Positions 1,009-45,137 of a stretch of DNA of 45,137 nt are shown here, piece by piece. The position numbers were made by a program, and so were the translations under genes. Each line of letters starts with the position of its first letter. Positions within the stretch are counted from its first letter, which is position 1. The notes beneath the pieces are model-generated. The model was not told the origin of the DNA and did no database searches. It saw only the letters and a list, made by a program, of their open reading frames with translations. The stretch comes from Escherichia phage vB_Eco_Sem3, in sequence record PV775410.1. One strand, 5' to 3'.

Positions 1009-2721
1009 CTACTTTGCAACCCAACCTTGAGCAGATGTACCAGATTCTTTAACGTACAATGTACTACCACCAGAACCATTGATATCAGTTGCTAAAGAGC
1101 CTACAGGTGCACCTACGCCTAAAGTTGTAGGGTTGCCATTTAGTCCATAAACAATCACCGTACTAGAACCAACTCCTTGGTTATTCTGAGGCGCCTGTGT
1201 GCCATAGCAATCATTGCCAATGAGTTTAATATTGGAACAAGAAGAAGTAACACGAATACCAAGGCTTGGCTTGTTAGGGCTTTCTCCGTCTACTCCAATA
1301 TTACCTTCTACTAGGATGTTGTTAGCCCCTGTGTCTATACTAATGAAGTGCCTACCTGCTTCAGCTGTAGATACTTCCTTCATATTATTGGCTTTAATCA
1401 CTAGACCGCTAGCCTTGCAGTTTACATGAATACCATATTGCCCTAATTTAGAGAAGATATTACGACTAAGTATACCTCCTCCTGATAAACCAGTACCAAT
1501 GAATGTAGTAGCATCAGACTCACCTAACCAAATCCCACTACCTCTACCGTTTTCCCAAGTATTACCTTCGATGTGGTATTTTGTCCCAAAGCGTAAACCG
1601 ATTAACCCTAAGCCACCAGAGCCTGTATTACCTTTTACAATTAAATTCTTACACCACCTTGCATCTACACCATAGGATACATCCTCTGTGAGGATCATAG
1701 TATTATTAGAAATTTCAATATGGTCATGCCAAATGTCACTAATATCAGTAAAAGGCCAAGATGGTGCAGCAATTAGAACTGGTGTCCTTACGCCATCAAA
1801 AGTGCAATCTACAATACTACCTTGTCGAGTACCCTGCGGTTTAGTCTGAGATGAGACAGGTGTAACATGGACACCTCTTGCATTAGAGTTCCTAAATGTG
1901 CAACCACGCACTGTCCAGTTTTTCCAGTTAAATACACGGACACCTGCAAAGAGAGCACCATCTGTAGTGCAATTCAAGATACGGATATTGTTGTCCTGTA
2001 CACCGTAAGCTGAGGCGTGATTTCCAATCAGTGCACCATAACCTCCAAACCCTGATTCTGTGTTTGGACCAGCATAGCAATTCTCCACCAGCATACCACT
2101 TGACTGTACATAGTGACCAACTGTAATAAGACCTGGGTCTAACTGTATAGCCTCTGAGAAGTTACGACTGCCTGTATTCTTAAAACCTAGGAATTTGCAA
2201 TCACGAATAACTACGTTGTTCCAATCTGCTAAATCTATGGCGTGGTAGTCCACTACATTGTTAACTGTTATGCCTTCAAACTTCAAATCATTATTACTAG
2301 TAGATGCAAATACTACAAAAGGTGTATCTCCCTTAGTGTGACCATTGCCTTCATAGATACCTCCACTGACTGTTACATTACTAGCTTGCCCTTGTGATAA
2401 TCTGAATAACGTATCTCCTGTTTCGTAGTCACGTACAAATGTTACACCTTTAGCAACCTTGAAGTGTGTATTAGCAAATATCTCAACAGTACCACTGAGT
2501 TTGTATTTTCCAGCTTTAGTGACTAATACAGTGCCACCGCCTAACACTCTGACTGCATTGAACGCAGCTTGAAGTGCTTGCCTGTTGTCATTGGAAGATG
2601 GAGTAACTCCAAAATCCGCAACATCTATTGTATCCGATAGTTTATCAGATAGCAGGCGCTCAATAGTACCTGTTAGTTTACTCTTGTACTTCACCAAGTA
2701 AGCACTTAATCTTTGAAGCAT
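1009..2721 (-). CDS. Tailspike protein 2, putative capsule/polysaccharide depolymerase (right-handed beta-helix)
   Basis: 570 aa; repetitive Gly/Asn/Thr/Val-rich beta-helix-like sequence (…NNVVDYHAIDLADWNNVVIRDCKF…); short N-terminal anchor region; RBS GAGGAGG; position matches the second tailspike of SP6/K1-5-type phages. Confidence 0.7.
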   Translation of the reverse strand: MLQRLSAYLVKYKSKLTGTIERLLSDKLSDTIDVADFGVTPSSNDNRQALQAAFNAVRVLGGGTVLVTKAGKYKLSGTVEIFANTHFKVAKGVTFVRDYETGDTLFRLSQGQASNVTVSGGIYEGNGHTKGDTPFVVFASTSNNDLKFEGITVNNVVDYHAIDLADWNNVVIRDCKFLGFKNTGSRNFSEAIQLDPGLITVGHYVQSSGMLVENCYAGPNTESGFGGYGALIGNHASAYGVQDNNIRILNCTTDGALFAGVRVFNWKNWTVRGCTFRNSNARGVHVTPVSSQTKPQGTRQGSIVDCTFDGVRTPVLIAAPSWPFTDISDIWHDHIEISNNTMILTEDVSYGVDARWCKNLIVKGNTGSGGLGLIGLRFGTKYHIEGNTWENGRGSGIWLGESDATTFIGTGLSGGGILSRNIFSKLGQYGIHVNCKASGLVIKANNMKEVSTAEAGRHFISIDTGANNILVEGNIGVDGESPNKPSLGIRVTSSCSNIKLIGNDCYGTQAPQNNQGVGSSTVIVYGLNGNPTTLGVGAPVGSLATDINGSGGSTLYVKESGTSAQGWVAK

Positions 2722-2806: not shown

Positions 2807-4705
2807 TCACTTAGGCAGGGAAGCTAGTGCTTCCTGCATACGCTTGATAGTCCTACGCATCAACGCAGCCTCTAATATCAGTACTTCCTCGTAACGAATA
2901 CCGTAGCGGGAACCTGCTGGTGTAATCAGTTTACGAGAGCCATTGGCATCTTCCTCGTATACATCATCCCAACTGTCGAAGCACAAGAAGCCATAGCGGT
3001 GTGCATCTATGCCGTGACGTTCGAAAGCCTCCTTAGCTCGCTGAGCGATGATACCGAAGTGCCATCTAGCTGAGTCTGCACCCTTCTCCTCAACACGATC
3101 CAAATACTGAAACTGCACAAAGTCAACTTCAGACCAAGCATCCAGTAAGGCATCTGATATAGTAAGAGGTTCTGTTTTACACCGAGCATCTGAGGTGACA
3201 GTGAATGCTGCTTGAGTAAAACCGCCAGACCATGCCCGACTGGCGGAACCTAATGCATATGTACCAGTACTATCTGGGGTCATTGCATCAGCACCTAACT
3301 GCAAAAAGCCTGTGCTACTGGTAGAAAGACGCACGTTACCGTTGGTGAGGGACACTGTCCGAGAAGTACCATCAGAAGTAAATAGGCGAACTTGAGAAGA
3401 AGTGCCCCCACCTACAGCTAATGACACAGCACCATCTCCAAGCATTCTGTACTTATCAGCAGAAGTAAGAACACCTGAAGGGAGTGACATGGACTTAATC
3501 CGCCATTCGAACCTACCTGACATACTACCTATGTACTGCCCTAAGGCAGGTGCGTGCACTACGTTACTATTATTAGTGCCGTCAATAGTAGCTGCACCGT
3601 CAATAGTACTAGCAGAACTGAGAATGTCGTTTCTCCTGCCAGGGTGCTTTACCTCTACGAAGTTACGGGTAGAGCCGGATTCGAAAGTAATAACACCTGT
3701 AGCACTGTAGCTAGGAAATACAGACGCATAGTTGTTATTAGCTGTACCTATAAAGCGTGCAATTGTAGCAGTCTGCCCTTGTCCTAAAGAGTTAGTACCA
3801 TCACATCCTGACATAAGCACATTATTTATGACGTTATCAGATCCCTCTACGGTAACACCATGAGCCTGCCTAGCATCAGAAGTTGAGTAATCTACGAGCA
3901 CGTCTGATATTAAGTTCGTACTTCCTTTGCCTGCAACAACCGCTGCATACTTAGGGTTATTAGCCATCACCCCACTGATAAGGTTATTAGAAGGAGCTAT
4001 TGGCCCTTCAGTGCCGTTGTAAGTTACATGCTGGCAATCTGCCCCTATAACATTACTGACTATGTTGTAACTGGCTGTACCTTTCAACTCTACTGCTCCG
4101 AACTGAGGGTAGTTCTTAGCAATGACGTTATCTATGAGGGAGTTAACTGAGGAGTCAGCAAGTACGCATCCGGCTGCCTTATTAGTAGCATAGCCTGAAT
4201 AGCTACCTCGAATACCTTTAATCATAAGCCCCTCAGGTGGCGCATCATTAGGGTATGCGATTAAACTGAAACCAGTACCTTTAACGTTTGAGAAGTTAAC
4301 GTCACTTACAGTAACATCACTTCCACCAGCAAGAGATACCTGCTGTCCCTGAGTTGTATCAGTCGCCTTATTACTTTCTACCGTAATATTACTTAAGCGA
4401 CCTGCACGTAGATTGTTAAATACTAAGTAGTTACCTGTACTGGAACGGTGACTTAGCACGCCACTACCCCTACCGTCTAAGTTACAGTAATTACTATTAA
4501 TACCAGAGCTAGAGAATACACCATCTGAGACTGTGACAGCTTTCTGAGAGTTTAATGAAGCAGCTATAACCTCCGTATCATCAGTAGTGGCGTCACCTGC
4601 AGCACCAAACGGCTTTGATGTTAAAACTCTCGCATCAAGGTACTCATACAAAGATTGTCCTTTATGCAAGATTCCTTCAGTATTAGGTTTGGTTAATTTA
4701 GCCAT
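2807..4705 (-). CDS. Tailspike protein 1 with C-terminal intramolecular chaperone (peptidase S74-type autoprocessing) domain
   Basis: Start at MAKLTKP (RBS GGAG; track ORF extends 20 codons further upstream). Beta-helix-like body; C-terminus …SDARCKTEPLTISDALLDAWSEVDFVQFQYLDR…FGIIAQRAKEAFERHGID…GFLCFDSWDD resembles the autocleaving chaperone domain of endosialidase-type tailspikes. Confidence 0.8.
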   Translation of the reverse strand: MAKLTKPNTEGILHKGQSLYEYLDARVLTSKPFGAAGDATTDDTEVIAASLNSQKAVTVSDGVFSSSGINSNYCNLDGRGSGVLSHRSSTGNYLVFNNLRAGRLSNITVESNKATDTTQGQQVSLAGGSDVTVSDVNFSNVKGTGFSLIAYPNDAPPEGLMIKGIRGSYSGYATNKAAGCVLADSSVNSLIDNVIAKNYPQFGAVELKGTASYNIVSNVIGADCQHVTYNGTEGPIAPSNNLISGVMANNPKYAAVVAGKGSTNLISDVLVDYSTSDARQAHGVTVEGSDNVINNVLMSGCDGTNSLGQGQTATIARFIGTANNNYASVFPSYSATGVITFESGSTRNFVEVKHPGRRNDILSSASTIDGAATIDGTNNSNVVHAPALGQYIGSMSGRFEWRIKSMSLPSGVLTSADKYRMLGDGAVSLAVGGGTSSQVRLFTSDGTSRTVSLTNGNVRLSTSSTGFLQLGADAMTPDSTGTYALGSASRAWSGGFTQAAFTVTSDARCKTEPLTISDALLDAWSEVDFVQFQYLDRVEEKGADSARWHFGIIAQRAKEAFERHGIDAHRYGFLCFDSWDDVYEEDANGSRKLITPAGSRYGIRYEEVLILEAALMRRTIKRMQEALASLPK

Positions 4706-8858: not shown

Positions 8859-9821
8859 TTATGCTGTGATAATCTTAGCAGTCATCCGGCATTCTGGCAC
8901 TCCCTCTGAGAAAGTAACAATGTCACCGTCTACCTGATAAGCAAGTTTAGGTTGTAATAATCCATCAAGGTAGACCTCAATGTACTTAAATGCAGAGCCA
9001 ATCTGTACTACTTGTTGGCCTTCTGCTAAGTCAAAGTTCAACTCTAACTGAATATTAGGTTCAGATGTAGCCACACGACTACCAATCAGCACATACACCT
9101 CTGTACCCGCCACAAGCGGCTCTGCGAAAGTGATAGTGTTGTTGCTTATAGAGTATGCGCCTACAATTTGGTGCTGCAACACCCCATTAAGGAAAACTAG
9201 TGCATCTTGAAATTCATAAGGTGGTTTTACGGAAATCTCACCACCTTGGGCTATCGTGTACCAAGGAACAGTTCTGTGCGCAATACCAGAAGTCATACCA
9301 GCCTTAAGGCCAGCAATCTCAATGTCCTGTTTGGCGTTCCAATCTGTATGCTTCTTGTCGATGGCATCAAGCTGCCCTTTATTTACTGCATCTCCCGGAT
9401 TTGTGCCATCAGCCAAATCAGTAATCTTATTGCCGCCCCAGCTTACATCCTGTTTAATGAAGTATCCTTCTGGATAAAACCCGTCAAGTAACTCCTGTGT
9501 AATCTCCAGTATATGAATGAAAGAACCATTTAAAGACTTCATATCCAAGGTAACACCACGGTCAAACTCAGCGTATGGATACTCCTTTTGTACTTCCCTT
9601 CTAATACGGAACTTCAAACCTGCAACTGGTGCTACATCAAAAGTAATCTGGTGCGTGCCAGTTAGTTGCCAGCCAGATGTAACCTCAATCCAAGTGTTAC
9701 CTTGAAGAGACTCCACTATCACATCTGAGGCACGAAGATAACCTTTATCCCTACCAGCAAAGCTAAAGGGATAGGTTACTTGCGTACCGTTGGCTATATG
9801 TTCTGTGAAAGTATAACTCAT
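8859..9821 (-). CDS. Tail fiber / tailspike adaptor protein (T7 gp17 N-terminal domain-like)
   Basis: 320 aa; N-terminus MSYTFTEHIANGTQVTYPFSFAGRDKGYLRASDV…; too short to be a receptor-binding fibre, consistent with the adaptor that carries tailspikes in SP6/K1-5-type phages. Confidence 0.7.
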   Translation of the reverse strand: MSYTFTEHIANGTQVTYPFSFAGRDKGYLRASDVIVESLQGNTWIEVTSGWQLTGTHQITFDVAPVAGLKFRIRREVQKEYPYAEFDRGVTLDMKSLNGSFIHILEITQELLDGFYPEGYFIKQDVSWGGNKITDLADGTNPGDAVNKGQLDAIDKKHTDWNAKQDIEIAGLKAGMTSGIAHRTVPWYTIAQGGEISVKPPYEFQDALVFLNGVLQHQIVGAYSISNNTITFAEPLVAGTEVYVLIGSRVATSEPNIQLELNFDLAEGQQVVQIGSAFKYIEVYLDGLLQPKLAYQVDGDIVTFSEGVPECRMTAKIITA

Positions 9822-12121
9822 CAATCCTCCAGTTCATCTAAGCCATAACGCAATGCGTTCTGGATTCCTATTACATTAGCTAGAGGCACTAAGCGTAAAG
9901 CCCTACGTGCCACATCTACACCTTCTGTATCACCCTCTGCGTATTTAGTTATAGAATCTGCTAAACGATATGCATCTTGACCAACACCTACTAGTGGTAT
10001 TTGGTCTATCAAACCCTTAGTCTGAAAGCCAGCCTCATAACGGGATTGTACTAACTCAGAAGGTAGAACACCTAGGCCACCTAAGAAATCTCCACCTAGA
10101 CTAAATACAGCAGTTGTACTCATCATACCCATTGCACCAAAGGCCAACCCTTTAGGCGATAACTTCTCTTCCAAATATTCATCTTGGTCTTCTCGACCAA
10201 TAGAGTTCACATAGGCTTTTGCCGCATACACTATTGAACCCAAAGCAAAACCATAAGCTGTCTTCTTAGCAAGACCAATTTTATCGTGGCGAATCCCTCG
10301 ACCAAATTGCTTCTCACCAGATACAAGAGAGAATGACTTAAGCTGTGCAAATGTCTTACCTAGTGCTTTGTTCATCCAGATACCTTCATCACCAATGAAA
10401 TTACGTTGGATAATTAGACCTGACTTACGACGAATAGCATTAGCTAAAGTTTCACCCATGGCATAAGGCATTGTATCAAAGCCAAGCAAGCCAGAACCTT
10501 TAGAGTTAGCATCATAGTGCTTCTGTAGGTTAGTCATGAACTCCTGAGTAAGACCAAGTTCCTCCAGTTTCTTCTGAGGAATAATCTTCTTGCCTTCAAG
10601 GTGGTCAATGAAAGACAAAGCTATTTGCCTATTGGTCATTCGCTCCAGAGAACCCTGTGCCATGCGGAAGAGGGATAGGTTTGTCTGAGCACGTCGTATA
10701 GAGTTCATGGACTGGTCAAAATGGGCCATCATACCTCGCACTGTGGTTACATCACCAAACTCATCGGGACGCGCACCCTTAGTTGTCAGCCAGTTGTCTT
10801 CACCAATGTAACCTACCATTCGCTCAACCTCAGCTAAATTCTTATCTCGAAAGAAGCCATCGCCATTACGCAACGCCTTAGAGGTGAAGCGGAATTGCTT
10901 ACCTAAAGCCATAGTGGTGGCAGCAATACCAAACTCACCCATGAAGTTAGCAAGTTCACCTAGCTGTGCGAAGCCCATCTGACCTAAGCGAAGTACACCT
11001 GTAATGTCACGCCCACGACGCAGCATTTTAGTAGACAAATCTTGTGGGTTTGAATCGATAGATTTACCCATAATCAAGCGAAGCCCTTCTCGCATCTGAC
11101 GGATTTCTTCATCAATAGCCAGACCAGCTGCTTCATCTTTCTCTTTCAATTTAAGTCGCTTCTTTAACTCTTCAATCTTCTCTTGTGCCTTCTTGTAATC
11201 AGGCTCTGATTGACGGATCTTAGCCGACTCCGCTTCAAATTGTGCGTGTGCTTTTGTATCTTTAGCTGCATTTCGTGCATTTCGCTCTACAAGATCAATT
11301 GCATTAAGTGCAGCCTGATAGGTAGAGAAACCTTGACGAGCCAAGGCAGCACCACCTGCCGCTTCCTTCATGTAGTTATCTGTTAACTCTTCCACGTTAG
11401 TGTTCATAAAGTCACGCATACGAATGCCATTGTACTCTTGAGTAACATCTAAGCCTAAACTCATCTTAGCTCGGTTAGAGATATTATCTCTGGTTTCTTT
11501 ATTATCCAGAGCTTCTACCATCTTTTCAATCTCTTCATCACTAAAGCCTGCTTTGCGCATTAGTGCTTCATATTCTGCTTTGGTTTGACCAGACATAGCC
11601 TTTTCAAAGCTAAGCTGTCCGGTCAGGGTGGCATCAGCAACGCGGTTTACTTGTGCTCGTGCAATATCATCAGCCACTTCCTTTGGAACCTTACGAGAAC
11701 CATTCTGGTATGCACGAGAGAATAACTCAATGATGTCCTCTTTATCGTGCATACTGAATTGACGACGAGCCTTCATACTATCAAAAATATCAGGCATGTA
11801 CTTATCATCTGCTTTAACCTTTTCAAACCCAGATTCACCAGAGCGTTGACGTAATGCTAATGCTTCACGATACATAGCTTGCTGCCCCTCTGCTGCCATA
11901 CGGATAGACTTAGGCGTAGACTCATCCATACCGATGCGTACAGCTTCCCATACCTTCTCATTATATTGCTGCACATAGTGAGAGTTAGTATGACCTGCAA
12001 CCGGGTTGATATTATTCTCTTTGAGCCATAAATCGAACCCATCATTGAAACGATTCATATCAGCAGATTTCAGACGGTTCAAGTTAGTATTCTGCATGAG
12101 ACTAGCAGATGCTTTCTGCAT
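9821..12121 (-). CDS. Internal virion (ejectosome/core) protein, 766 aa
   Basis: Large protein in the T7 gp15/gp16 position; assigned by synteny and size. Confidence 0.6.
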   Translation of the reverse strand: MQKASASLMQNTNLNRLKSADMNRFNDGFDLWLKENNINPVAGHTNSHYVQQYNEKVWEAVRIGMDESTPKSIRMAAEGQQAMYREALALRQRSGESGFEKVKADDKYMPDIFDSMKARRQFSMHDKEDIIELFSRAYQNGSRKVPKEVADDIARAQVNRVADATLTGQLSFEKAMSGQTKAEYEALMRKAGFSDEEIEKMVEALDNKETRDNISNRAKMSLGLDVTQEYNGIRMRDFMNTNVEELTDNYMKEAAGGAALARQGFSTYQAALNAIDLVERNARNAAKDTKAHAQFEAESAKIRQSEPDYKKAQEKIEELKKRLKLKEKDEAAGLAIDEEIRQMREGLRLIMGKSIDSNPQDLSTKMLRRGRDITGVLRLGQMGFAQLGELANFMGEFGIAATTMALGKQFRFTSKALRNGDGFFRDKNLAEVERMVGYIGEDNWLTTKGARPDEFGDVTTVRGMMAHFDQSMNSIRRAQTNLSLFRMAQGSLERMTNRQIALSFIDHLEGKKIIPQKKLEELGLTQEFMTNLQKHYDANSKGSGLLGFDTMPYAMGETLANAIRRKSGLIIQRNFIGDEGIWMNKALGKTFAQLKSFSLVSGEKQFGRGIRHDKIGLAKKTAYGFALGSIVYAAKAYVNSIGREDQDEYLEEKLSPKGLAFGAMGMMSTTAVFSLGGDFLGGLGVLPSELVQSRYEAGFQTKGLIDQIPLVGVGQDAYRLADSITKYAEGDTEGVDVARRALRLVPLANVIGIQNALRYGLDELED

Positions 12122-12123
12122 AC

Positions 12124-13128
12124 CTAAGCCTTGGGGGACTCAAACAGGCGAGCACCAAGGCCGCGTACACTTGCATCCTGAGAGGAATGTACGACAGTAC
12201 CAAGGGCAGACAGAGTTCCGGCCCAGCGGCGAGGGGCCATATCAATTGCATTACCTTCCCGCTGTAGGGTTTTCAGCAAATCTTCACCTTTGCTAGAGAT
12301 ATCAAATGCACCCTCAGTGAGTACCTCTTCACCCTTAACACGCATCGCACCGATACTATCATCAGCAACAGCACGCACATAGCGGTCCCCTGCGTCTGCA
12401 CTGCGCACAATACTCGCAGCCCTGTCATCTCCTTGCTCACTGAGCTTAGTGGCCCTACCACGCGCTACAGCTCCAATAACGCCACCCATAGCCATACCGG
12501 AGCCTAGTGCTACCATAATGTCATCTAAATCACGAGTCATGTCACCTTGGACCAATATGGATTCAATAGCGGCATTACTTACGCCAGCGGCGATAGCGCC
12601 ACGCACAGCACGGCCTACGAGTCCAACTTTAGCGGCACCACCGGTTGGAATAGAGGCAACCCATCCCACAGGGTCAAGCACAGCAGCGCCAATCGTCGCC
12701 ACAGAGCCAACCCAGCCAGCCTGAGCAATGCGCTTATTGCGCTCAAGGTCTTCATCAGCATTCTGAATACGGAAGTTCAATTCATCCTCAGAACGAACAC
12801 CCTCAGTGATTGTCTGCATCATATCTGTACCATATTTGAAACGTAGTGCTTCACGTTGCTCAGGTTGTATCTCGAAGTCTGGTTGAGGTGTGAAATCAGC
12901 AGTGGCACGGTCATACCACCGCTTGCCTCCAAATGCCAACCACTCATTCTGGAAGGCAGCACCTACAGCACCTAAGATATCAGCATCAGCTTTAGCTTCA
13001 AGAACTTGCTCTTGTAACTCATTACGCTGGCGTATCGTAGGAGCCGATACCGGAGCCGCCTCAATAGAAAACGGCTCAGGAGTAGACTGGACATATCCAG
13101 CCCAATTAGTCTTAATGTCTTGTTCCAT
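12124..13128 (-). CDS. Internal virion protein, 334 aa (Ala/Gly-rich hydrophobic core)
   Basis: RBS GGAGGAA; may be the N-terminal part of a split gp16-like protein together with 9821-12121. Confidence 0.5.
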   Translation of the reverse strand: MEQDIKTNWAGYVQSTPEPFSIEAAPVSAPTIRQRNELQEQVLEAKADADILGAVGAAFQNEWLAFGGKRWYDRATADFTPQPDFEIQPEQREALRFKYGTDMMQTITEGVRSEDELNFRIQNADEDLERNKRIAQAGWVGSVATIGAAVLDPVGWVASIPTGGAAKVGLVGRAVRGAIAAGVSNAAIESILVQGDMTRDLDDIMVALGSGMAMGGVIGAVARGRATKLSEQGDDRAASIVRSADAGDRYVRAVADDSIGAMRVKGEEVLTEGAFDISSKGEDLLKTLQREGNAIDMAPRRWAGTLSALGTVVHSSQDASVRGLGARLFESPKA

Positions 13129-13192: not shown

Positions 13193-16141
13193 CTACAACT
13201 TAAATTTACCTACCTTAGAACCTTTAGCTAGCTTGGTAGGTGCAGCCTCATAAACTTGATACCAACCATTCGCGCCAATACGTTTATGAGTCCATGCCGA
13301 GACAGAGCCTGCTGGCATAGGTCCACCAAACCTAACCCACATGGAGCCATCTTCACGAGTCTCCACTTCGGTAATCTTAGGCACACCACCAGCAGATGCC
13401 ATATTGTATGCCTCAGCGCGTCGCTTCAGTAGACCAGGGATACGCTTACCTTCACTTGATGCAGTGCCCAGCATTTCGATAAAGCCTTCCGTAAGCTTAC
13501 CAGCTTTGAATGCAGCAAGAGCACGCGGTGAGTTCTGGATTCCACCTTTACCTAAATTGTAGGTTAAATCCATCAAGCCACGTTGCTGTGCAGGATGCAT
13601 CTGGTCAAACGGAATCTTCCAGTCACGAGTAGGAGGCACATGCTTCTTGGCATCTTGCTCCATAAGAGCGCGAGCCTTGCTCTCTGTAAGCTGAGACATA
13701 GACCCTCGATAGGGAACTAGTTCATCACCAATCTTAATATACCCGTTTCGCTTCTCTTCTTCCGTTAAGAAATGACCGTAACCGATAGACTCACCGCGAG
13801 CGTCTTTATATGGAGTAAAGGTTCCAGTTGCTCTATTAAAGCCAACTTTGTCTTTATTCTCATCCATAGCTAGCTTGTCATAGAATTGTTGCATATTACC
13901 TCGATAGTTAATCTCGAAGTTAGAAGGCAGATTCTCACCAGAAGCAAAAGCTGAAGACATGAGGAAGTTAGCTAGTCCAAATTTACCAATATCTTTGGCA
14001 GTTGGTTTAGCTGGCATAGGCTCTTGTACACCAATATCTGTACGATACGGGTGAACATACTCGCCTTTATCTCGTTCCTCTACTTTCTTCTGATAGGCAG
14101 AATCTAGTAGTGAAGTAGTATCTAAAGAGGTTACAGGGATTACTCCAGAAAGAGGGCGACCTGCTGCACCAGCACGAATCACAAAAGTTCCTTTCTGTTC
14201 ATTGTAATCAATGTATATATCATCTTTAGTTTCCCACTCTTGAAGCTCCTTCTTCAATTCTGGCATCTGTGTTTCTACATACCTACCAAGCGCCAGAGGT
14301 ACATCGGTAGGGTTTACGCCTTTCCCAACTGACATAAGCATATCAGATGCAGAAGTGTAATCACCTTTAATGAAATAGCCACCGGAAGTCTTTGCATCCT
14401 CTGTTTGAGTGTAGCGTTTATTGCCCCAAGTAATTAAAGCCTTCTTGATAGAATCCATGTTACGCATACCACTAGACCACAACATATTGGCCTTAGCTCG
14501 TAACTCTTCTTCCGCAATAGCTTTACCTAAGTCTGACACTTCGGTTTTACCATCAAACCAGCCAGCACCAGATACCTCATCCAGTGCATCTCCAATAGCT
14601 GAGTTGAACTTCTTGGTTTCCTTCTCAGTACGAGAGAATTTCTGCTGTGCTTCACGCGCAAACCTTGCAGCCTGCAAGGGTGTCTCTCCCATTTGTAGTG
14701 CAGTGTTGTAGTTATCCATGTAGCCATTCACCGTGTCACCAAAGACACCTCGGCTCTCTTCTGGTAACTGTTCCCACAACTGGCGAATAGTCATCAACTC
14801 CTGTGGTTCGCCCTTGGCAAAGTGCTCAGGCGATAGCATAGATTCCATGGCTTTGATACGAGACTCAAAGGTATCATCCACTAAGCCTTTGGAGTTCATG
14901 AATTGCAGGCGCTGCACTTCCACTGCACCACGAATAGCTTCAGCCTCTTGACTGTAAGGGTCCAAGCCACGTTGTTTGATTTGCTGGTCTGCATAAAGTT
15001 GGCTATCCTGTTTGATAACATCAATGTAAGCCTTCTTCTCTTTATCAGTCTTACCTTGGAAGCCAGTAAGGCGGTCGGAGTAAAGCTCACGTCGCATATC
15101 CTGCATTGCACCTAGCTCTGCATTCTGCTTAGCCCGTTGGCGCATCAGTGCCTCTAGCTCTGGATTAGAGAAGACAGAGTTACCTGTCAGATTATTAATG
15201 TGCTGTGCTCGTTCCAACAATTCTTCATCAGTTAAATCACCTGCAAGGTAGGATTCTTTAACTTCGAAAGACATACGAGTTACATCAGCTACATTATTCC
15301 TAGCCCAAACTGCATTACCACTAGTGATGGCTGTGATAAGCTGTGGATTCTTAGCATAAACAGAAACACCCTTATCGTCCTTCACATACTTCAGGGCTTC
15401 AGCCATGCTAACATCACCGCCTTGTGCAAGTGAAATTGCTCGCTGGACTAACTTCTTGTGCATCTGTTCAGGTAGTAACCCTTGAGTAAGACCTTCGCGG
15501 ATTCGTTCCTGTAAAGCATAGCCAGAGGCTTCAGGGTCAATATTAGAATCCCAAGTAGAAGCCACTCGCCCGTCAAAGGTATCCTCACGGTCTGCTTGTT
15601 CACGGTCAAGTTTATGCTGGGTTCGTGTAGCCCAAATCTGAGGCTGCTGTTCTTGGAAGACATTAGTGACCATACGCATAGTATCTTTGTCACCTTGCAA
15701 CTCAGGGTATTGCTGGAACAGCTTATTCTGCATCTCATTACGAGAGTCAACCATAAGTTGTGTCCACTCGTCATCCGTTCCTTGGAAACGAGTAGCCATG
15801 TCTTTCATTCGTGCTGCTTCATCATTAGCTAGCAGTTGAGCTTTGACAAGCATGTTAGCACGAGCGCCACCACGAGTTGCATCCTCAGAAGGCATTAATC
15901 CGTTATATGCCCGTTCCATTTGAACAACCTTATCTTCCTCAATCTTTTGATTAAGGATACCAGTGGTTACATCAGCTACACTACTGGCTGCTCGAATAAG
16001 GTCTTCGATAAATCGACTACCGGAGGTAGAAGCTACGCCAGCCTCCACACCTCCAACTCGCTGAGGTGCAAAGGTCATGACATTAGGGGAAGTGGCCTGC
16101 ACTTGTGGCAGACCTTGTACTGCTTGTCGCTCAATTGCCAT
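13193..16141 (-). CDS. Internal virion protein with lysozyme-like peptidoglycan hydrolase domain, 982 aa
   Basis: C-terminal region (…GYGHFLTEEEKRNGYIKIGDEL…LTESKARALMEQD…GLMDLTYNLGKGG…) looks like a phage lysozyme fold; TAATG overlap with the upstream gene. Confidence 0.6.
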   Translation of the reverse strand: MAIERQAVQGLPQVQATSPNVMTFAPQRVGGVEAGVASTSGSRFIEDLIRAASSVADVTTGILNQKIEEDKVVQMERAYNGLMPSEDATRGGARANMLVKAQLLANDEAARMKDMATRFQGTDDEWTQLMVDSRNEMQNKLFQQYPELQGDKDTMRMVTNVFQEQQPQIWATRTQHKLDREQADREDTFDGRVASTWDSNIDPEASGYALQERIREGLTQGLLPEQMHKKLVQRAISLAQGGDVSMAEALKYVKDDKGVSVYAKNPQLITAITSGNAVWARNNVADVTRMSFEVKESYLAGDLTDEELLERAQHINNLTGNSVFSNPELEALMRQRAKQNAELGAMQDMRRELYSDRLTGFQGKTDKEKKAYIDVIKQDSQLYADQQIKQRGLDPYSQEAEAIRGAVEVQRLQFMNSKGLVDDTFESRIKAMESMLSPEHFAKGEPQELMTIRQLWEQLPEESRGVFGDTVNGYMDNYNTALQMGETPLQAARFAREAQQKFSRTEKETKKFNSAIGDALDEVSGAGWFDGKTEVSDLGKAIAEEELRAKANMLWSSGMRNMDSIKKALITWGNKRYTQTEDAKTSGGYFIKGDYTSASDMLMSVGKGVNPTDVPLALGRYVETQMPELKKELQEWETKDDIYIDYNEQKGTFVIRAGAAGRPLSGVIPVTSLDTTSLLDSAYQKKVEERDKGEYVHPYRTDIGVQEPMPAKPTAKDIGKFGLANFLMSSAFASGENLPSNFEINYRGNMQQFYDKLAMDENKDKVGFNRATGTFTPYKDARGESIGYGHFLTEEEKRNGYIKIGDELVPYRGSMSQLTESKARALMEQDAKKHVPPTRDWKIPFDQMHPAQQRGLMDLTYNLGKGGIQNSPRALAAFKAGKLTEGFIEMLGTASSEGKRIPGLLKRRAEAYNMASAGGVPKITEVETREDGSMWVRFGGPMPAGSVSAWTHKRIGANGWYQVYEAAPTKLAKGSKVGKFKL

Positions 16142-16861
16142 TAAATACCTCTTGTTCCAGATGAATATGTACGAGAATCAGTTAAAGCTTTACCTAAAGC
16201 CATGCCGGACTTACTACCTGTTACATAGGCAGATGCCAGACTCGGTATACCTTGCACCAAGGTGCTCACGGCAGAAGGCTTCTTAAACTCACGCATCTGC
16301 ATCTGTCCACCTCGCTGGATAGATTTAAGCTGATTGGTGAAGTTAATCTTCTGATTCTCATAGTTATCAATAATTGTACTCTGGTTCCTCCCGCCCTCTG
16401 CTGCTAAGTCATTCAGCATAGAAGATACAGAGTTACCACCAGTACCAGTAGCACCTGCTAGTAATGCAACCTGTGCTCGCTGCTGTAGTAGTGAAGCCTG
16501 ATTGCTTATTGCATCTGCATGATATTGTTTAGCAGCAGAACGCTCTGCATCTGCTACTGTTTTGTATGCTTCTTGTGTAGCAATAAGTTGCTGCCGCCAC
16601 TGTTCTTCTTGTGCTTTCTTCATTGCCTTGGCTTCATCACTTCCACCAAAGAGATCACCAATCAAGCCTAAACCTTGAAGGCCAGCACCAAGAAGCCCAG
16701 CATTAGAGAAGCCAGCAGTAGAGCCGCTTAGGAAGCCACCTAGAGAACCTAGCAAGCCTCCGCCACCTGCGGCAGCACCTCCAGCAGCGGCTGCTGCAGC
16801 TGCCTGTAAACATACTACCAATAGAAGACATACCAGCCATAACGGCAGAACCTATAGCCAT
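16141..16861 (-). CDS. Internal virion protein A-like (Gly/Ala-rich), with an apparent frame discontinuity near the 5' end
   Basis: Strong RBS AAAAGGAGGG plus ATG at 16861 (TAATG-coupled to tail tubular B) opens a frame that turns Cys/Arg/Trp-rich after about 20 codons; the long Gly/Ala-rich ORF (16141-16821) is in the +1 frame and has only a TTG start with no RBS. Confidence 0.5.
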
Positions 16862-19263
16862 TAGACCCTCCTTTTGGTTGGATTGTAGCTCCCTTCCCAC
16901 TCAATATCACGAAGCTGGAATGTGTGGGGTGACTCTACAATAATACGATAAACAACATCCGTGCTCTTAGCTCTCAGTGGAAATCTGAAGACACCTTCTC
17001 TCGGTTCAACATAGCCTACTGTATTATTGAGAGCACCACCTATACGGTTTGACGCTAATACTCTACGTACTTTACCACTCTTCACATTCTTAACTTCTAC
17101 GGAGAAATCGGGGTACATGTCAAGATTAAGGTGAACCAATCCTACAACTGGTACATCAATATAGGATACACGGTCTTGATTGTCTCTGATAACCACAGGT
17201 GTAGGTTCAAACTCTTGAGGGTAAATCTGACCAACAATAACCTTCGCTTTTACATGACTGTCATCATACATATCAAAGGTTGTAGACAAAGTATTGTCAC
17301 TAGGGTTGTACTTGAATAAGAAAGAGCCACCAATATATGAATCCCAACCCTCGATTAAGATGCAATCTAAAAGTTCTGGGTTAGTAGGAGTCCAAGGAAG
17401 CGGTTCAGACACCCATTCATCTTCTGCTTTAAAATACTTGAAGACTAACTCTGCTTGCCTATCCATTCTGATGCGGTCATTCAAACCGTAGGTTAGTGCA
17501 TCACCCATGTCCATCTTCTCCAGATATACGCCATCTCCTCGCTCAAGGAGCAGGTAAAGTAATTCACCAGAATAAAACATACCTCGCACCTTTGTACCTA
17601 TAGGCCACTTCCATACATGCCATGCCGATTGTACACGGTCTGTTCCTTGCCATAACCAATCGTAGCAGTAGATTATGTTACGATACTTATCGGTAGTGAC
17701 AAGTAACCTGTTGACATTGGTGCTTGCTGCCATGTTGGTAATGTTACCTTCGATGAGTTTATTCACATGACTTGTGATTGCTTGTGCCTTCTTAGTGTCA
17801 CTATAAGAGTCTGTATAGAACTCTCGTACACCAGAGTAAGAACCATCATTAGTGGCAAACATTACCGATTCACCAGTTACTACTGGCTTCACTTTATTGT
17901 TCACTTCAAATGTTGTAACAGGCTTAAGAAGTGCATTTGACTTCTCTAAAGGCTTATCGCCTGGCAGTATGAATTGTGACTTATCAGAGAACAACACGGT
18001 AGCGCCATCTAAGGTCACTGCATGTTTTAGCTGGTAGACTTCACTAGCATCTGAGAAAATATCAAATGGGTCAGTTGCCAATGCAGAGATAACCGTATAA
18101 CGAAAGAAATCGAAGAAGTATGATGTACGAGAAGCAATAACCGCTTCACCTGCTGTAAAGCATAGGCGGTTCTGCACCATGAACATTCCACCTATTGTCT
18201 GGGGTACCTCCTCATCAATAAAAGAGGGCATAGGGTTAGTCAAGTCATCCCCTACTTTACGATCTTCCCAATCACCTTGTCTTATCTTGAATTGAGCTAT
18301 GCCGTTGATGATATCTGTACGTTCAATAATGTAAGGCATTGTGCCTTTATCAAACCCAAGTAATACATCAGCAGCTATTGTTTCTTTCCAAGACACAAGG
18401 TTTCCCTCTTTAGGCTCAGCTTGCAGCCAGTAACGAGACTCAGGTTTGCTGCCAGTAGGCCACACTTGTACTTTATAACCAGCAGGCGCACGAGAAGGGA
18501 GTAGGTCAGTAGAGCTAACTTTATTCTTGATAGCCACTAAGTCCTTACCTTTTGCACCATCGGTGGTTGTTATTGTAAAGCTAGCACCATCCCGTCTCTC
18601 GATAAATATACTAGTACCGTCTCTTTGTATTTCATAGTCACTCACACCGCTCCATTGCTGCAACTTAGAGTACAATTCAGAAGTGATACGTTCAGTTCGA
18701 ATTTGTTCAACATGGTCTGCACTTCCACCATCCGGTGTTTTAAAACTAGCAGCGTTGGTCCCATTAATTACAATGGAATAAGATGTACCATATTGACCAT
18801 ACGCACAAAACACAATGGCTTTGTTTCCAACTTTAGGTGACTTCCTGTTACTAGCTTTAACTACCTTCCTACGATTAAGCATGAAAGTAACATCAGCTAT
18901 CGTCATGAATTGTACATCTTCCCTTGGATTAACAACCTCAGAGAGGTAGGTCATAGGTGCATCTTGTGAAGTAACATTACATTTGCGCCCATACTTATCA
19001 AATATCTCAGGAACTTGTCCTTTCTTCAACGTGAAGAAATACTCTTCATCACCATCACCTCTGCGATAATGATGAATAGCCATGTCATCAGTCCCCGCAT
19101 CAAGTATCTTTGCAATATGAGTTGTACCCATGCGTGATTGAGTACCATTCACTACATCAGGTATCATATTAACCATAGCTGTGCACTGACCATCCAAGCG
19201 TACCGCTGGCGGCTGCTGGCTAATCCCTTGGATTTGTCTACCTAATGAACCTTGTACTTCCAT
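16861..19263 (-). CDS. Tail tubular protein B
   Basis: About 800 aa, T7 gp12-sized; start at MEVQGSLG with RBS GGGAGGA and a 1-nt overlap with the tail tubular A stop. Confidence 0.85.
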   Translation of the reverse strand: MEVQGSLGRQIQGISQQPPAVRLDGQCTAMVNMIPDVVNGTQSRMGTTHIAKILDAGTDDMAIHHYRRGDGDEEYFFTLKKGQVPEIFDKYGRKCNVTSQDAPMTYLSEVVNPREDVQFMTIADVTFMLNRRKVVKASNRKSPKVGNKAIVFCAYGQYGTSYSIVINGTNAASFKTPDGGSADHVEQIRTERITSELYSKLQQWSGVSDYEIQRDGTSIFIERRDGASFTITTTDGAKGKDLVAIKNKVSSTDLLPSRAPAGYKVQVWPTGSKPESRYWLQAEPKEGNLVSWKETIAADVLLGFDKGTMPYIIERTDIINGIAQFKIRQGDWEDRKVGDDLTNPMPSFIDEEVPQTIGGMFMVQNRLCFTAGEAVIASRTSYFFDFFRYTVISALATDPFDIFSDASEVYQLKHAVTLDGATVLFSDKSQFILPGDKPLEKSNALLKPVTTFEVNNKVKPVVTGESVMFATNDGSYSGVREFYTDSYSDTKKAQAITSHVNKLIEGNITNMAASTNVNRLLVTTDKYRNIIYCYDWLWQGTDRVQSAWHVWKWPIGTKVRGMFYSGELLYLLLERGDGVYLEKMDMGDALTYGLNDRIRMDRQAELVFKYFKAEDEWVSEPLPWTPTNPELLDCILIEGWDSYIGGSFLFKYNPSDNTLSTTFDMYDDSHVKAKVIVGQIYPQEFEPTPVVIRDNQDRVSYIDVPVVGLVHLNLDMYPDFSVEVKNVKSGKVRRVLASNRIGGALNNTVGYVEPREGVFRFPLRAKSTDVVYRIIVESPHTFQLRDIEWEGSYNPTKRRV

Positions 19264-31830: not shown

Positions 31831-34380
31831 TCAGTGTGTTTCCTTCCAGCTTGCGCCAATCTTATATTCTCCTGCCATCGGGCAACGCATCTTCAGATAC
31901 TGCCCTGCCCAAGTCATGGCGTCGGCAATGATATGACCTGCACGGTGATAGCGGCGCTGGCAATGCAATACACCAGCATCAGCATCAACGCTAACGAGGT
32001 TTGCAGCAGACCACATACGTCCTTCAGAATCCACATGAATACGTTTCTCCTCTGCATCGAAAACTGCTTTCACAGCAGCCTTCTCTGTTTCGAACCCATC
32101 TAAGGTGAAAGGTAGGTCGTAGTTAAGATACAAGACCTCCTCTTCAGGAACTTCCATCTGGATTTCATCATGCACGTTAGCCACACCACAAGGATTTCCC
32201 ATAGCATCCAAAGCTACACCTTCCTTGCGCATTACTGCAAATGCCTTGACTAATGCATATTTCATACACAAAGAGCCAGTCATCTGGAGTAATACGTTAA
32301 GCATCGTGTGCTCTTTAAGTTCACCACCAGACATGCGGATGCGACCCCAATGCCCATCAGGTGCTTGCAGGTAGCCAAACTTGTTACCTTGTGCGATAAC
32401 ATTCTCACGAAGACGTGCAAGAGACGGTAGTTCAATCTCGAATCTTGCCACAACTTCCTTCATTTCTTCCTCAGTAACACCGCAGACTGCTGCAAGGTTG
32501 GCTATACCAGAACCATAGAGGAAGGCGTATATAAACGTCTTCGCCATATCACGCTTAGGAAGACCAGCCTTCATCTGGTTATGCGTATGAATATCACCGT
32601 GCAGTACAATCTCTTGGTACTCAGGGTCATTCATGAAGTGAGACAGGACACGCAGTTCAAGACCTGCACCGTCACAACCAAGAATTAGCTTGCCTTTCCC
32701 TGCTATGAATAAATCACGTAAAGGATACAAGCCACGGGCAGGAATATTAACCACGTTACGATGACGCATACGGAACGTAGAAGTGCCAATACTAATAGCA
32801 ACAGCTGGAACACGCCACTCTCCGTCATCTTTGTCAGACGTAGGCCAACATCCGTACCTCTCGTAGTATTGCTGCGCATTGATTCCTAGCTCCTTGTTGA
32901 ATGCTACAGGTACAAGGCCGCGACACTTTCGTACACCAGCCTGCGAGGGCCACGTTCCCTTCTCGTTGAAGGCTTCAACGTCACCACGGTTGAGTATCTG
33001 ACCACGACGGGATACGAGTATGTACCATGCAGCGATACCCAAGCACCAATCAGGGACTGTTTTACCTTCACGTGCGGCTCTTTCTTGCCATAAAGTGAGA
33101 GACTTTTCATTTATCTTACCACTCCAAGGTTTTGGTAACACTCCGTGCTCATCGAGATGAGCTTGCTCGGTATCGTTAAATTCAACACCTTTCCATCCAT
33201 ACTCATAGAGCACTTGCTTAACTGTATCCCTGTTACCCAAGGGAATCTCTTCGAAAGTAACAGGCGAGTAAGCGCCAATCCACTTGATGCTTGGCGTGTC
33301 ATTACGGTTTCCTCTAAGGTGAGGAAAGTCTTTCTTGACACTAGCCGACCAATCACCAGACTTAGTAGTGACACTCCATACTGTCTTGCGATCTCCTCGT
33401 CTCTCGGCATGAAGAAAGTGTGAGGGGTCAAGGACAGTAGGTATATTGTTGCTAGCTCCATACTCATTTGCGCGTTGGCATACTTCATTCTTTTCTTCCG
33501 GTTTAAAAGGTTTAGACTTGATACGCATAGGCATGTGAGGGCGGAACGCTGCGACTGTCTCATCAATCTTAGCGTCCAATTCTTCGCATCGGGCCAAAGC
33601 CTTGTCTATGTCCAGACGGAACCCGCGCTCGGCCTGACGGCTCATCTCCAGCGCCACAATGGACTCCATGTGGAAGGCTGTCTCAATGCCTAGGCCCGTG
33701 CGTTTATTCACGCCACGGCGTTTGTGCTCCATCCATTCCCCGTTAAAGAGCCAGAGGAACAAGTCACGACCAATCGCCACGTCCTCACGTACACGGTGAA
33801 CCATGTGGTCAGTTAGTTTAGACCAGTCCTCGTTCTCCGGTTTATAGCGACCTATACGGATGCCGTGCGCCTCAATTGAGTGAGGGGCGACGTTACCCAT
33901 ACCTTTGGCATATGCTTGCGGAGGAAGGCGTCTATCGGGGTTTAACAGGCGACTCATCACCAGCGTATCGACCACCTTAATGGGACACAAGTCTGCCCTT
34001 AAGCTGCCTTTGCCACGACGCTGGGTATAATTATACCCTTTCCAGATATCTGGAAATGCTTTCTCTAAAGCTAAACCATCATAGCCTAAGAAGTTTTGAG
34101 AAACGATAGCATCCGCATGATATAGGAAATTAACACCATCTTCCAGAGTACCATCTTGATGTCCTTCCCATTCAACTAAATGCTCTCTTGCAGAAGGATC
34201 TCTATTCTCAAATGAGTTAAAGAAAAGAAACTCTTCGGTAGTTAGTAGATCTACGCAGCAGATAATATGGACATCGTGATTACCTTTACCATAACGTATA
34301 GCGTCTAACAAACCTTTCGCTTCCAAATCCATAACTAGGATTCTGCCTTTAGCGGCCTCTTTCCAATTAATACCTTTCAT
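31831..34380 (-). CDS. DNA polymerase (family A, with 3'-5' exonuclease domain)
   Basis: 849 aa; N-terminal exonuclease-like region (…VMDLEAKGL…) and C-terminal polymerase motifs (…LHGDIHTHNQ…, …KTFIYAFLYGSG…, …VANVHDEIQMEV…); T7-like position. Confidence 0.9.
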   Translation of the reverse strand: MKGINWKEAAKGRILVMDLEAKGLLDAIRYGKGNHDVHIICCVDLLTTEEFLFFNSFENRDPSAREHLVEWEGHQDGTLEDGVNFLYHADAIVSQNFLGYDGLALEKAFPDIWKGYNYTQRRGKGSLRADLCPIKVVDTLVMSRLLNPDRRLPPQAYAKGMGNVAPHSIEAHGIRIGRYKPENEDWSKLTDHMVHRVREDVAIGRDLFLWLFNGEWMEHKRRGVNKRTGLGIETAFHMESIVALEMSRQAERGFRLDIDKALARCEELDAKIDETVAAFRPHMPMRIKSKPFKPEEKNEVCQRANEYGASNNIPTVLDPSHFLHAERRGDRKTVWSVTTKSGDWSASVKKDFPHLRGNRNDTPSIKWIGAYSPVTFEEIPLGNRDTVKQVLYEYGWKGVEFNDTEQAHLDEHGVLPKPWSGKINEKSLTLWQERAAREGKTVPDWCLGIAAWYILVSRRGQILNRGDVEAFNEKGTWPSQAGVRKCRGLVPVAFNKELGINAQQYYERYGCWPTSDKDDGEWRVPAVAISIGTSTFRMRHRNVVNIPARGLYPLRDLFIAGKGKLILGCDGAGLELRVLSHFMNDPEYQEIVLHGDIHTHNQMKAGLPKRDMAKTFIYAFLYGSGIANLAAVCGVTEEEMKEVVARFEIELPSLARLRENVIAQGNKFGYLQAPDGHWGRIRMSGGELKEHTMLNVLLQMTGSLCMKYALVKAFAVMRKEGVALDAMGNPCGVANVHDEIQMEVPEEEVLYLNYDLPFTLDGFETEKAAVKAVFDAEEKRIHVDSEGRMWSAANLVSVDADAGVLHCQRRYHRAGHIIADAMTWAGQYLKMRCPMAGEYKIGASWKETH

Positions 34381-34852
34381 ATCTAGACCAACCTTTGTGA
34401 GATTTGAAATTCCGCCAACCTTTATACACCTTACTCATAGAATTAAGGTTGAGGTTGTTTTCTTTGCAGAATTTAGACAAGTTAAATACTTCTACTCGTT
34501 CTCCTTCTGGATTACAGAATATGTAGGATTTAGCACAAGCAGCTTCGTGTCTCTCTTTAGAATGCGCAGTGTTACCTAACCTATCAGTCCATTCTAAATT
34601 ATCTTCATGACAGTTAGCTCTGTCATAATCTTTATGGTTGACTTCTGGTAAATTAAGAGGGTTCGGTATGAAATTCTCTGCCACCAAGCGGTGCAATTTC
34701 CTATGCTTTCCTGCAATATTCATTATCCGATAACCATCTTTGTCAAGATAACCTACAAGGAATCTGTTTGTTATCGTGCTAAAGATACGACCATCGGAAT
34801 AGAGGATGTAGTTAGTAAAAATCCTCGTACATTTGATCTGTTTCGAACTCAT
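34367..34852 (-). CDS. HNH homing endonuclease (161 aa) abutting the DNA polymerase start
   Basis: Start at MSSKQIK (RBS AGGAGGGAGG); …LPEVNHKDYDRANCHEDNLEW… HNH motif; 3' end overlaps the DNAP start by 14 nt. Confidence 0.75.
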   Translation of the reverse strand: MSSKQIKCTRIFTNYILYSDGRIFSTITNRFLVGYLDKDGYRIMNIAGKHRKLHRLVAENFIPNPLNLPEVNHKDYDRANCHEDNLEWTDRLGNTAHSKERHEAACAKSYIFCNPEGERVEVFNLSKFCKENNLNLNSMSKVYKGWRNFKSHKGWSRYERY

Positions 34853-34953
34853 CCTCCCTCCTTTCTGGTTTAGGTTGCATTGAATCTTGGAAATCCCAAT
34901 CAGAATCATAATCACGTGGCATAATGCACCTCCAATCAACATGATAAAAGGCT

Positions 34954-44787: not shown

Positions 44788-45137
44788 ACACGTCAGGCTT
44801 GTGAGTGGAGCGCTAGCGAAACGAACAGATAGCCCACGCCCTCCCACCCTGTCAAACGCTCAGGAATGGCCCTGAATAGCCTCAGGAATGCACTAAGCGG
44901 CTTCACTAAGGCAATCACCTTGTCCACCACTAAGCCATCCCTAGGCCGTCCTAGGCGCTCTCCAGCGTTCCACCTTGCTAGTACATGAGCAAAGACTAGG
45001 CTGTACCAGCTAACTAGTACGGCCTGCCCTTGTGTACTACTAAGCTAGTACAAGGAGTACATCAGCCCTGCCCCGTCGAAGACGGATTTCCTCAGGCCAC
45101 CCTATGGGGGCAACCCGGCGAGGGCGAGGAAGCAGAG

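Follow-up and report, generated by a model that had tools for sequence, protein, structure and literature searches.

Does the frame discontinuity that follows the tail tubular protein B gene of Escherichia phage vB_Eco_Sem3 belong to the phage or to its sequence record? The stretch of DNA analysed here (45,137 nucleotides, PV775410.1; referred to below as the window) represents the complete genome of a K1-5/K1E-like Vectrevirus (Molineuxvirinae), written in the reverse orientation relative to K1-5. All genes around the break are on the minus strand. A preliminary description had noted that a frame opened by a ribosome-binding site and an ATG degenerates into an odd peptide, with the body of the protein continuing in the +1 frame, and had left the choice between an assembly indel and programmed recoding.

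The gene upstream of the break, encoding tail tubular protein B (K1-5 gp33 ortholog, 800 aa; 16861..19263, minus strand), is recovered with K1-5 gp33 as a single tblastn HSP (19263..16864, 99.4% identity). Its stop codon TAA (16863-16861) shares a base with the ATG at 16861-16859, forming a TAATG overlap, and a Shine-Dalgarno sequence read as AAGGAGG (16867..16873, minus strand) is located 5 nt upstream of this ATG. Alignment of the window with vB_Eco_Sem1, vB_Ka_Sem4 (hereafter Sem1 and Sem4), K1-5 and K1E showed that the AAGGAGG element is invariant. Translated from ATG 16861, the frame yields MAIGSAVMAGMSSIGSMFTGS followed by CSSRCWRCCRRWRRLARFSRWLPKRLYCWLL, up to a stop at 16703; the mechanical open reading frame containing it spans 16703-16900. 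The first 21 codons (16799..16861, minus strand) are authentic and specify residues 1-21 of the Sem1 protein. The 31 codons that follow the junction in the same frame include 6 for Cys and 4 for Trp, with 5 AGG and 2 CGG codons among them. This out-of-frame tail (CSSRCWRCC...CWLL, then stop; 16703..16798, minus strand) is a by-product of the deletion described below and no gene.

The body of the protein, corresponding to residues 22-240 of the intact product, is encoded at 16141..16798 (minus strand) in the +1 frame, its first codon being truncated to T. It reads AAAAAGGAAAGGGGLLGS..., is Gly/Ala-rich, and ends with a TAA (16143-16141) that overlaps the ATG of the next gene. The only start codon in frame with the body is a TTG at 16821, which is not preceded by a Shine-Dalgarno sequence. 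Both frames are open together over 16851-16706, and translation of the sequence as written would give a product of 52 aa if begun at the ATG and one of 226 aa if begun at the TTG. The anatomy given in the preliminary description is thus borne out by the sequence as regards the ribosome-binding site, the ATG coupled to the tail tubular B stop, and the body that lacks both; its Cys/Arg/Trp-rich peptide is there as well, with the refinement that 21 authentic residues come first and nonsense follows up to 16703. The break itself separates 16799 from 16798, close to the lower end of 16800-16870, the interval that had been proposed for inspection. It is no chance pattern: in a tblastn search, residues 23-240 of K1-5 gp34 match 16797-16144 with 97.7% identity, and the other frame carries, at 16861-16799, an exact coding sequence for residues 1-21 of the Sem1 protein.

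Judged by its homologies, the broken gene is that of a putative T7 gp14-like ejection protein, the ortholog of K1-5/K1E gp34. The protein obtained after restoring the reading frame matches Pfam family PF24072 (T7_gp14) over residues 59-232 with a score of 114.2 bits (E = 9e-33; the curated cut-off is 27 bits), and the matching region is encoded wholly by the body segment, downstream of the break. A second profile match is to PHROG 805, "internal virion protein" (E = 1.8e-52), and a hydrophobic Gly/Ala/Leu-rich N-terminal third is visible. In T7 nomenclature, gp14 is "internal virion protein B" and not A; the name "internal virion protein A" used in the preliminary description accordingly gives way to that of a gp14-like ejection protein. 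Gene order points the same way: on the minus strand, gp33 (tail tubular B) is followed by the gp14-like gene, which heads the ejection-protein operon, and then by a 982-aa gp35 ortholog and a gp36 ortholog, a layout that is described in a review of podophage ejection proteins, where K1E gp34 (240 aa), gp35 (982 aa) and gp36 (1102 aa) are listed as the gp14-, gp15- and gp16-like factors (PMC8954989). According to the same source, T7 gp14, gp15 and gp16 are essential, the DNA ejectosome of T7 has an outer-membrane pore built from gp14, and the gp14-like protein shows the highest conservation among the ejection proteins (PMC8954989).

The region 16100-17100 was compared with related phages by megablast. 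The search retrieved 65 phage records, all of them Vectrevirus (K1-5/K1E group, Molineuxvirinae), the best matches being Sem1, vB_Eco_Sem2 (hereafter Sem2) and Sem4 with 99.5-99.8% identity. In all records among the matches listed, the aligned stretch was at least two bases longer than the query. The difference was traced to a GG dinucleotide on the coding strand (CC on the plus strand; junction 16798..16799, minus strand) that is present in 65/65 Vectrevirus relatives and missing in the window: a 123-nt query across the junction corresponds to 125 nt in those relatives that align over its full length. In the alignment, the relatives read ...ACA GGC AGC GGT GCA GCA GCC... and the window reads ...ACA GGC AGC TGC AGC AGC C...; the intact allele across the junction is GGCAGCGGTGCAGC.

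When the GG was restored in silico, a 240-aa protein (roughly 24 kDa) was obtained that is identical to the Sem1 product as well as to the Sem2 and DIJ06P1 proteins; its first Lys or Arg is K79. The single polypeptide of ~180-240 aa expected for a gp14-like protein, which the sequence as written does not provide, is thereby recovered at 240 aa. In Sem1, K1-5 and K1E, the gene is annotated as a single 723-nt ORF (240 aa) starting at the same TAATG, and in SP6, Klebsiella IME184, Proteus PM116 and Pectobacterium PP1 a single ORF likewise follows tail tubular B directly, with the N-terminal MxI conserved out to these four phages. Comparison with orthologs had been proposed in the preliminary description, which allowed for the possibility that they start at the internal TTG in the same arrangement; the orthologs inspected are instead single ORFs that begin at the same TAATG-coupled ATG. 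The deleted allele had no matches in IMG/VR, in JGI metagenomes or among one-per-species GTDB genomes. A control search with the intact allele, run in two of these three collections, retrieved 1 contig in IMG/VR and 3 in the JGI metagenomes. Neither the 52-aa nor the 226-aa mechanical product is on record in an index of 153 billion genes.

We searched the window by tblastn with the whole K1-5 proteome, and two genes were found to be split, gp34 and gp36. The gene between them, encoding the gp15-like ejection protein (K1-5 gp35 ortholog, 982 aa; 13193..16141, minus strand), is intact and is covered by one HSP with 98.8% identity. The gp16-like gene (K1-5/K1E gp36 ortholog; 9821..13128, minus strand) is frame-broken both by tblastn, in which gp36 splits into frames -3 and -2 at about 12130-12136, and by alignment, which shows that one base is missing in a run of five G residues at 12133-12137 (plus strand; five C on the coding strand). 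As a result, the gene is divided into a 334-aa ORF and a downstream ORF. With a query across the G run, the window, Sem1 and Sem2 match 121:121, and 122 bases are found in Sem4 and in the non-Sem relatives that, among the matches listed, align over the whole query. Addition of one G at 12133-12137 yields an ORF of 1102 aa, as long as K1E gp36. Two of the three essential ejection genes are therefore broken in one genome, for which sequencing is a far easier explanation than biology.

The siblings Sem1 (PV717788), Sem2 (PV775413) and Sem4 (PV775411) were compared with the window genome-wide. Although the four genomes are near-identical, their attributions differ in host (E. coli or Klebsiella aerogenes) and in site (Istanbul or Adana). 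Identity with the window over the whole genome is 99.98% for Sem1 and 99.94% for both Sem2 and Sem4, the last of which has the same orientation as the window and almost matching coordinates. Among the four assemblies, 51 sites vary, of which about 40 are indels of 1-2 bases. The majority of these indels occur in one assembly only, and others are seen repeatedly at hot spots (11626/11628, 21927 and 38920). In the Sem1 annotation, the RNA polymerase and primase/helicase genes are fragmented by indels, and in those of Sem2 and Sem4 the same has happened to gp12, capsid, scaffold and portal. Two-base indels such as the one at the junction are found elsewhere in the set: CT and AA in Sem2 (21927 and 23932), and GG in Sem4 (window position 17556). 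All three siblings carry the intact GG, and each has its own set of indels at other places; Sem4 breaks the same gp14-like gene elsewhere, through one additional C at window position 16299. Of the four assemblies, the window is the cleanest, with the fewest indels, and the GG deletion at 16799|16798 is its only private indel relative to Sem1, Sem2 and Sem4. We consider the overall indel pattern to be a signature of consensus errors, because such lesions are incompatible with a viable phage and true divergence consists predominantly of substitutions. The Sem set gives the impression of a single phage that was sequenced repeatedly on an error-prone platform. A literature search on the Sem phages for the sequencing platform retrieved no papers.

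From these data, we infer that the two-base deletion is most likely a consensus or assembly error, with a probability of roughly 0.8. The GG would have been lost during base-calling, assembly or polishing and would be no property of the phage; its absence after codon 21 sends the ATG frame into nonsense and places the body in the +1 frame. The actual phage most probably encodes an ordinary 240-aa protein in one frame, with no recoding. The frame discontinuity as a biological feature is thus most likely not real. Of the two explanations offered in the preliminary description, the indel is upheld by the GG that is missing relative to 65 relatives and gives 240 aa when restored, and recoding finds no backing in a break that is private and has no shift motif.

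The alternative that survives best, which we regard as unlikely, is a genuine two-base deletion in the sequenced stock, for example in a defective sub-population that came to dominate the consensus, or as a tolerated lesion. In the latter case, translation could begin at the weak TTG at 16821 or at an internal ATG, corresponding to Met81 in the intact protein, and give a shortened product. The position of the Pfam T7_gp14 match, wholly downstream of the break, speaks for this reading, although a start at Met81 would cut the first 22 residues of the match. The otherwise low number of indels in the window favours a genuine mutation, and so does the site: instead of a long homopolymer, it is a GC-rich and quasi-palindromic stretch of GCN triplets, of the kind prone to real slippage or template switching; when quasi-palindrome-templated deletion was examined as a mechanism, the sequence context was found to be suggestive. 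However, the lesion would affect a protein that is essential in T7 and the most conserved of its class (PMC8954989), with an N-terminal MxI conserved across genera, and TTG 16821 has no Shine-Dalgarno sequence in front of it. Moreover, Sem1, Sem2 and Sem4, near-identical as they are, carry the intact allele, as do all other relatives, and a second essential gene, the gp16-like one, is broken in the same sequence. That a phage able to form plaques should bear two lesions of this kind is implausible, because T7 gp14, gp15 and gp16 are essential.

A more demanding version, very improbable in our view, is that the GG deletion is genuine in a plaque-forming phage that makes sufficient functional gp14-like pore protein through unprogrammed +1 slippage at the rare AGG or CGG codons placed in the zero frame by the deletion, or through re-initiation, giving a protein without its conserved N-terminus. 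If this were true, the phage could do without about 21 N-terminal residues, or without the gp14-like protein in normal amounts.

Programmed +1 ribosomal frameshifting, which would fuse the ATG frame to the Gly/Ala-rich body and give the full-length protein from the sequence as written, is the least probable of the readings considered, and we reject it. The overlap of the open frames over 16851-16706 would allow a shift there to yield a fusion, and rare AGG and CGG codons do occur in the zero frame past the junction; "hungry" codons of this kind can favour +1 slippage at a low level in E. coli. Yet the break is seen in 0/65 relatives, all of which have the GG, and the ORF is contiguous in those inspected, whereas a programmed signal would be expected to be conserved; the junction (ACA GGC AGC UGC AGC) contains neither a prfB-type nor any other shift-prone motif. 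No in-frame stop was found at the junction and no Shine-Dalgarno stimulator 3-10 nt upstream of it, and the RNA of 16830-16700 folds no more stably than shuffled sequence (z = -0.08). The downstream sequence, furthermore, is identical in siblings that need no shift. The proposal that TTG 16821 is the ancestral start was also rejected, as the orthologs inspected, out to the SP6, Klebsiella, Proteus and Pectobacterium phages, start with the conserved MxI directly after tail tubular B.

Several other features of the window were recorded. A perfect 301-bp direct terminal repeat is present at 115-415 and 44829-45129, as expected for a T7/SP6-like linear genome. Outside the repeat, there are 114 bases on the left (1-114) and 8 bases on the right (45130-45137). 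These stubs do not match the terminal stub of Sem4, which is itself unrelated, and bases 1-114 gave no match in the collections of E. coli genomes and of phages; both stubs may be chimeric or non-phage sequence from the assembly ends. The first tailspike (2810-4705) shares 99% identity with K1-5 gp46. The second tailspike (about 1009-2721, minus strand) matches K1-5 gp47, an endosialidase, with 33-35% identity over short stretches only, a divergence that suggests a swapped receptor-binding module. Two ORFs for HNH homing endonucleases are annotated in Sem4 and would correspond to about 469-843 and about 34371-34856 of the window (minus strand); one of them lies immediately upstream of the DNA polymerase gene and overlaps its start. 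In K1-5, the corresponding place is taken by no more than a short ORF.

An error at the junction matters mainly for curation. The gene itself is ordinary and well known and carries a private two-base deletion; the sequence as written gives a truncated or mis-started gp14-like gene, and at 12133-12137 a further break divides the gp16-like gene. The two breaks need to be corrected or flagged before annotation is transferred from this record, before frameshifting is claimed, and before the sequence enters phage-therapy documentation. More generally, when only one of several near-identical assemblies has a frame break, that break should count as an error until the reads show otherwise.

Among known recoding systems, the +1 frameshift of prfB (RF2) shares with the junction its geometry only, namely a zero-frame start and a body in the +1 frame. 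Unlike prfB, the junction has no site resembling CUU UGA C, no internal Shine-Dalgarno sequence, and no conservation of the break. The programmed -1 frameshift of T7 gene 10A/10B is a known recoding event in T7-like phages and, as here, concerns a structural gene of a T7-like podophage; it differs in that it affects the capsid gene, operates in the -1 direction, is conserved in relatives, and yields a minor extended product with no rescue of a whole protein. The closest counterparts are K1-5 gp34, K1E gp34 and SP6 gp35, which occupy the same genome position directly after tail tubular B, are coupled to it through TAATG, and are likewise followed by genes for a 982-aa gp15-like protein and a gp16-like protein of roughly 1100 aa. 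From these genes, the one in the window differs only by the GG missing after codon 21, which splits its frame.
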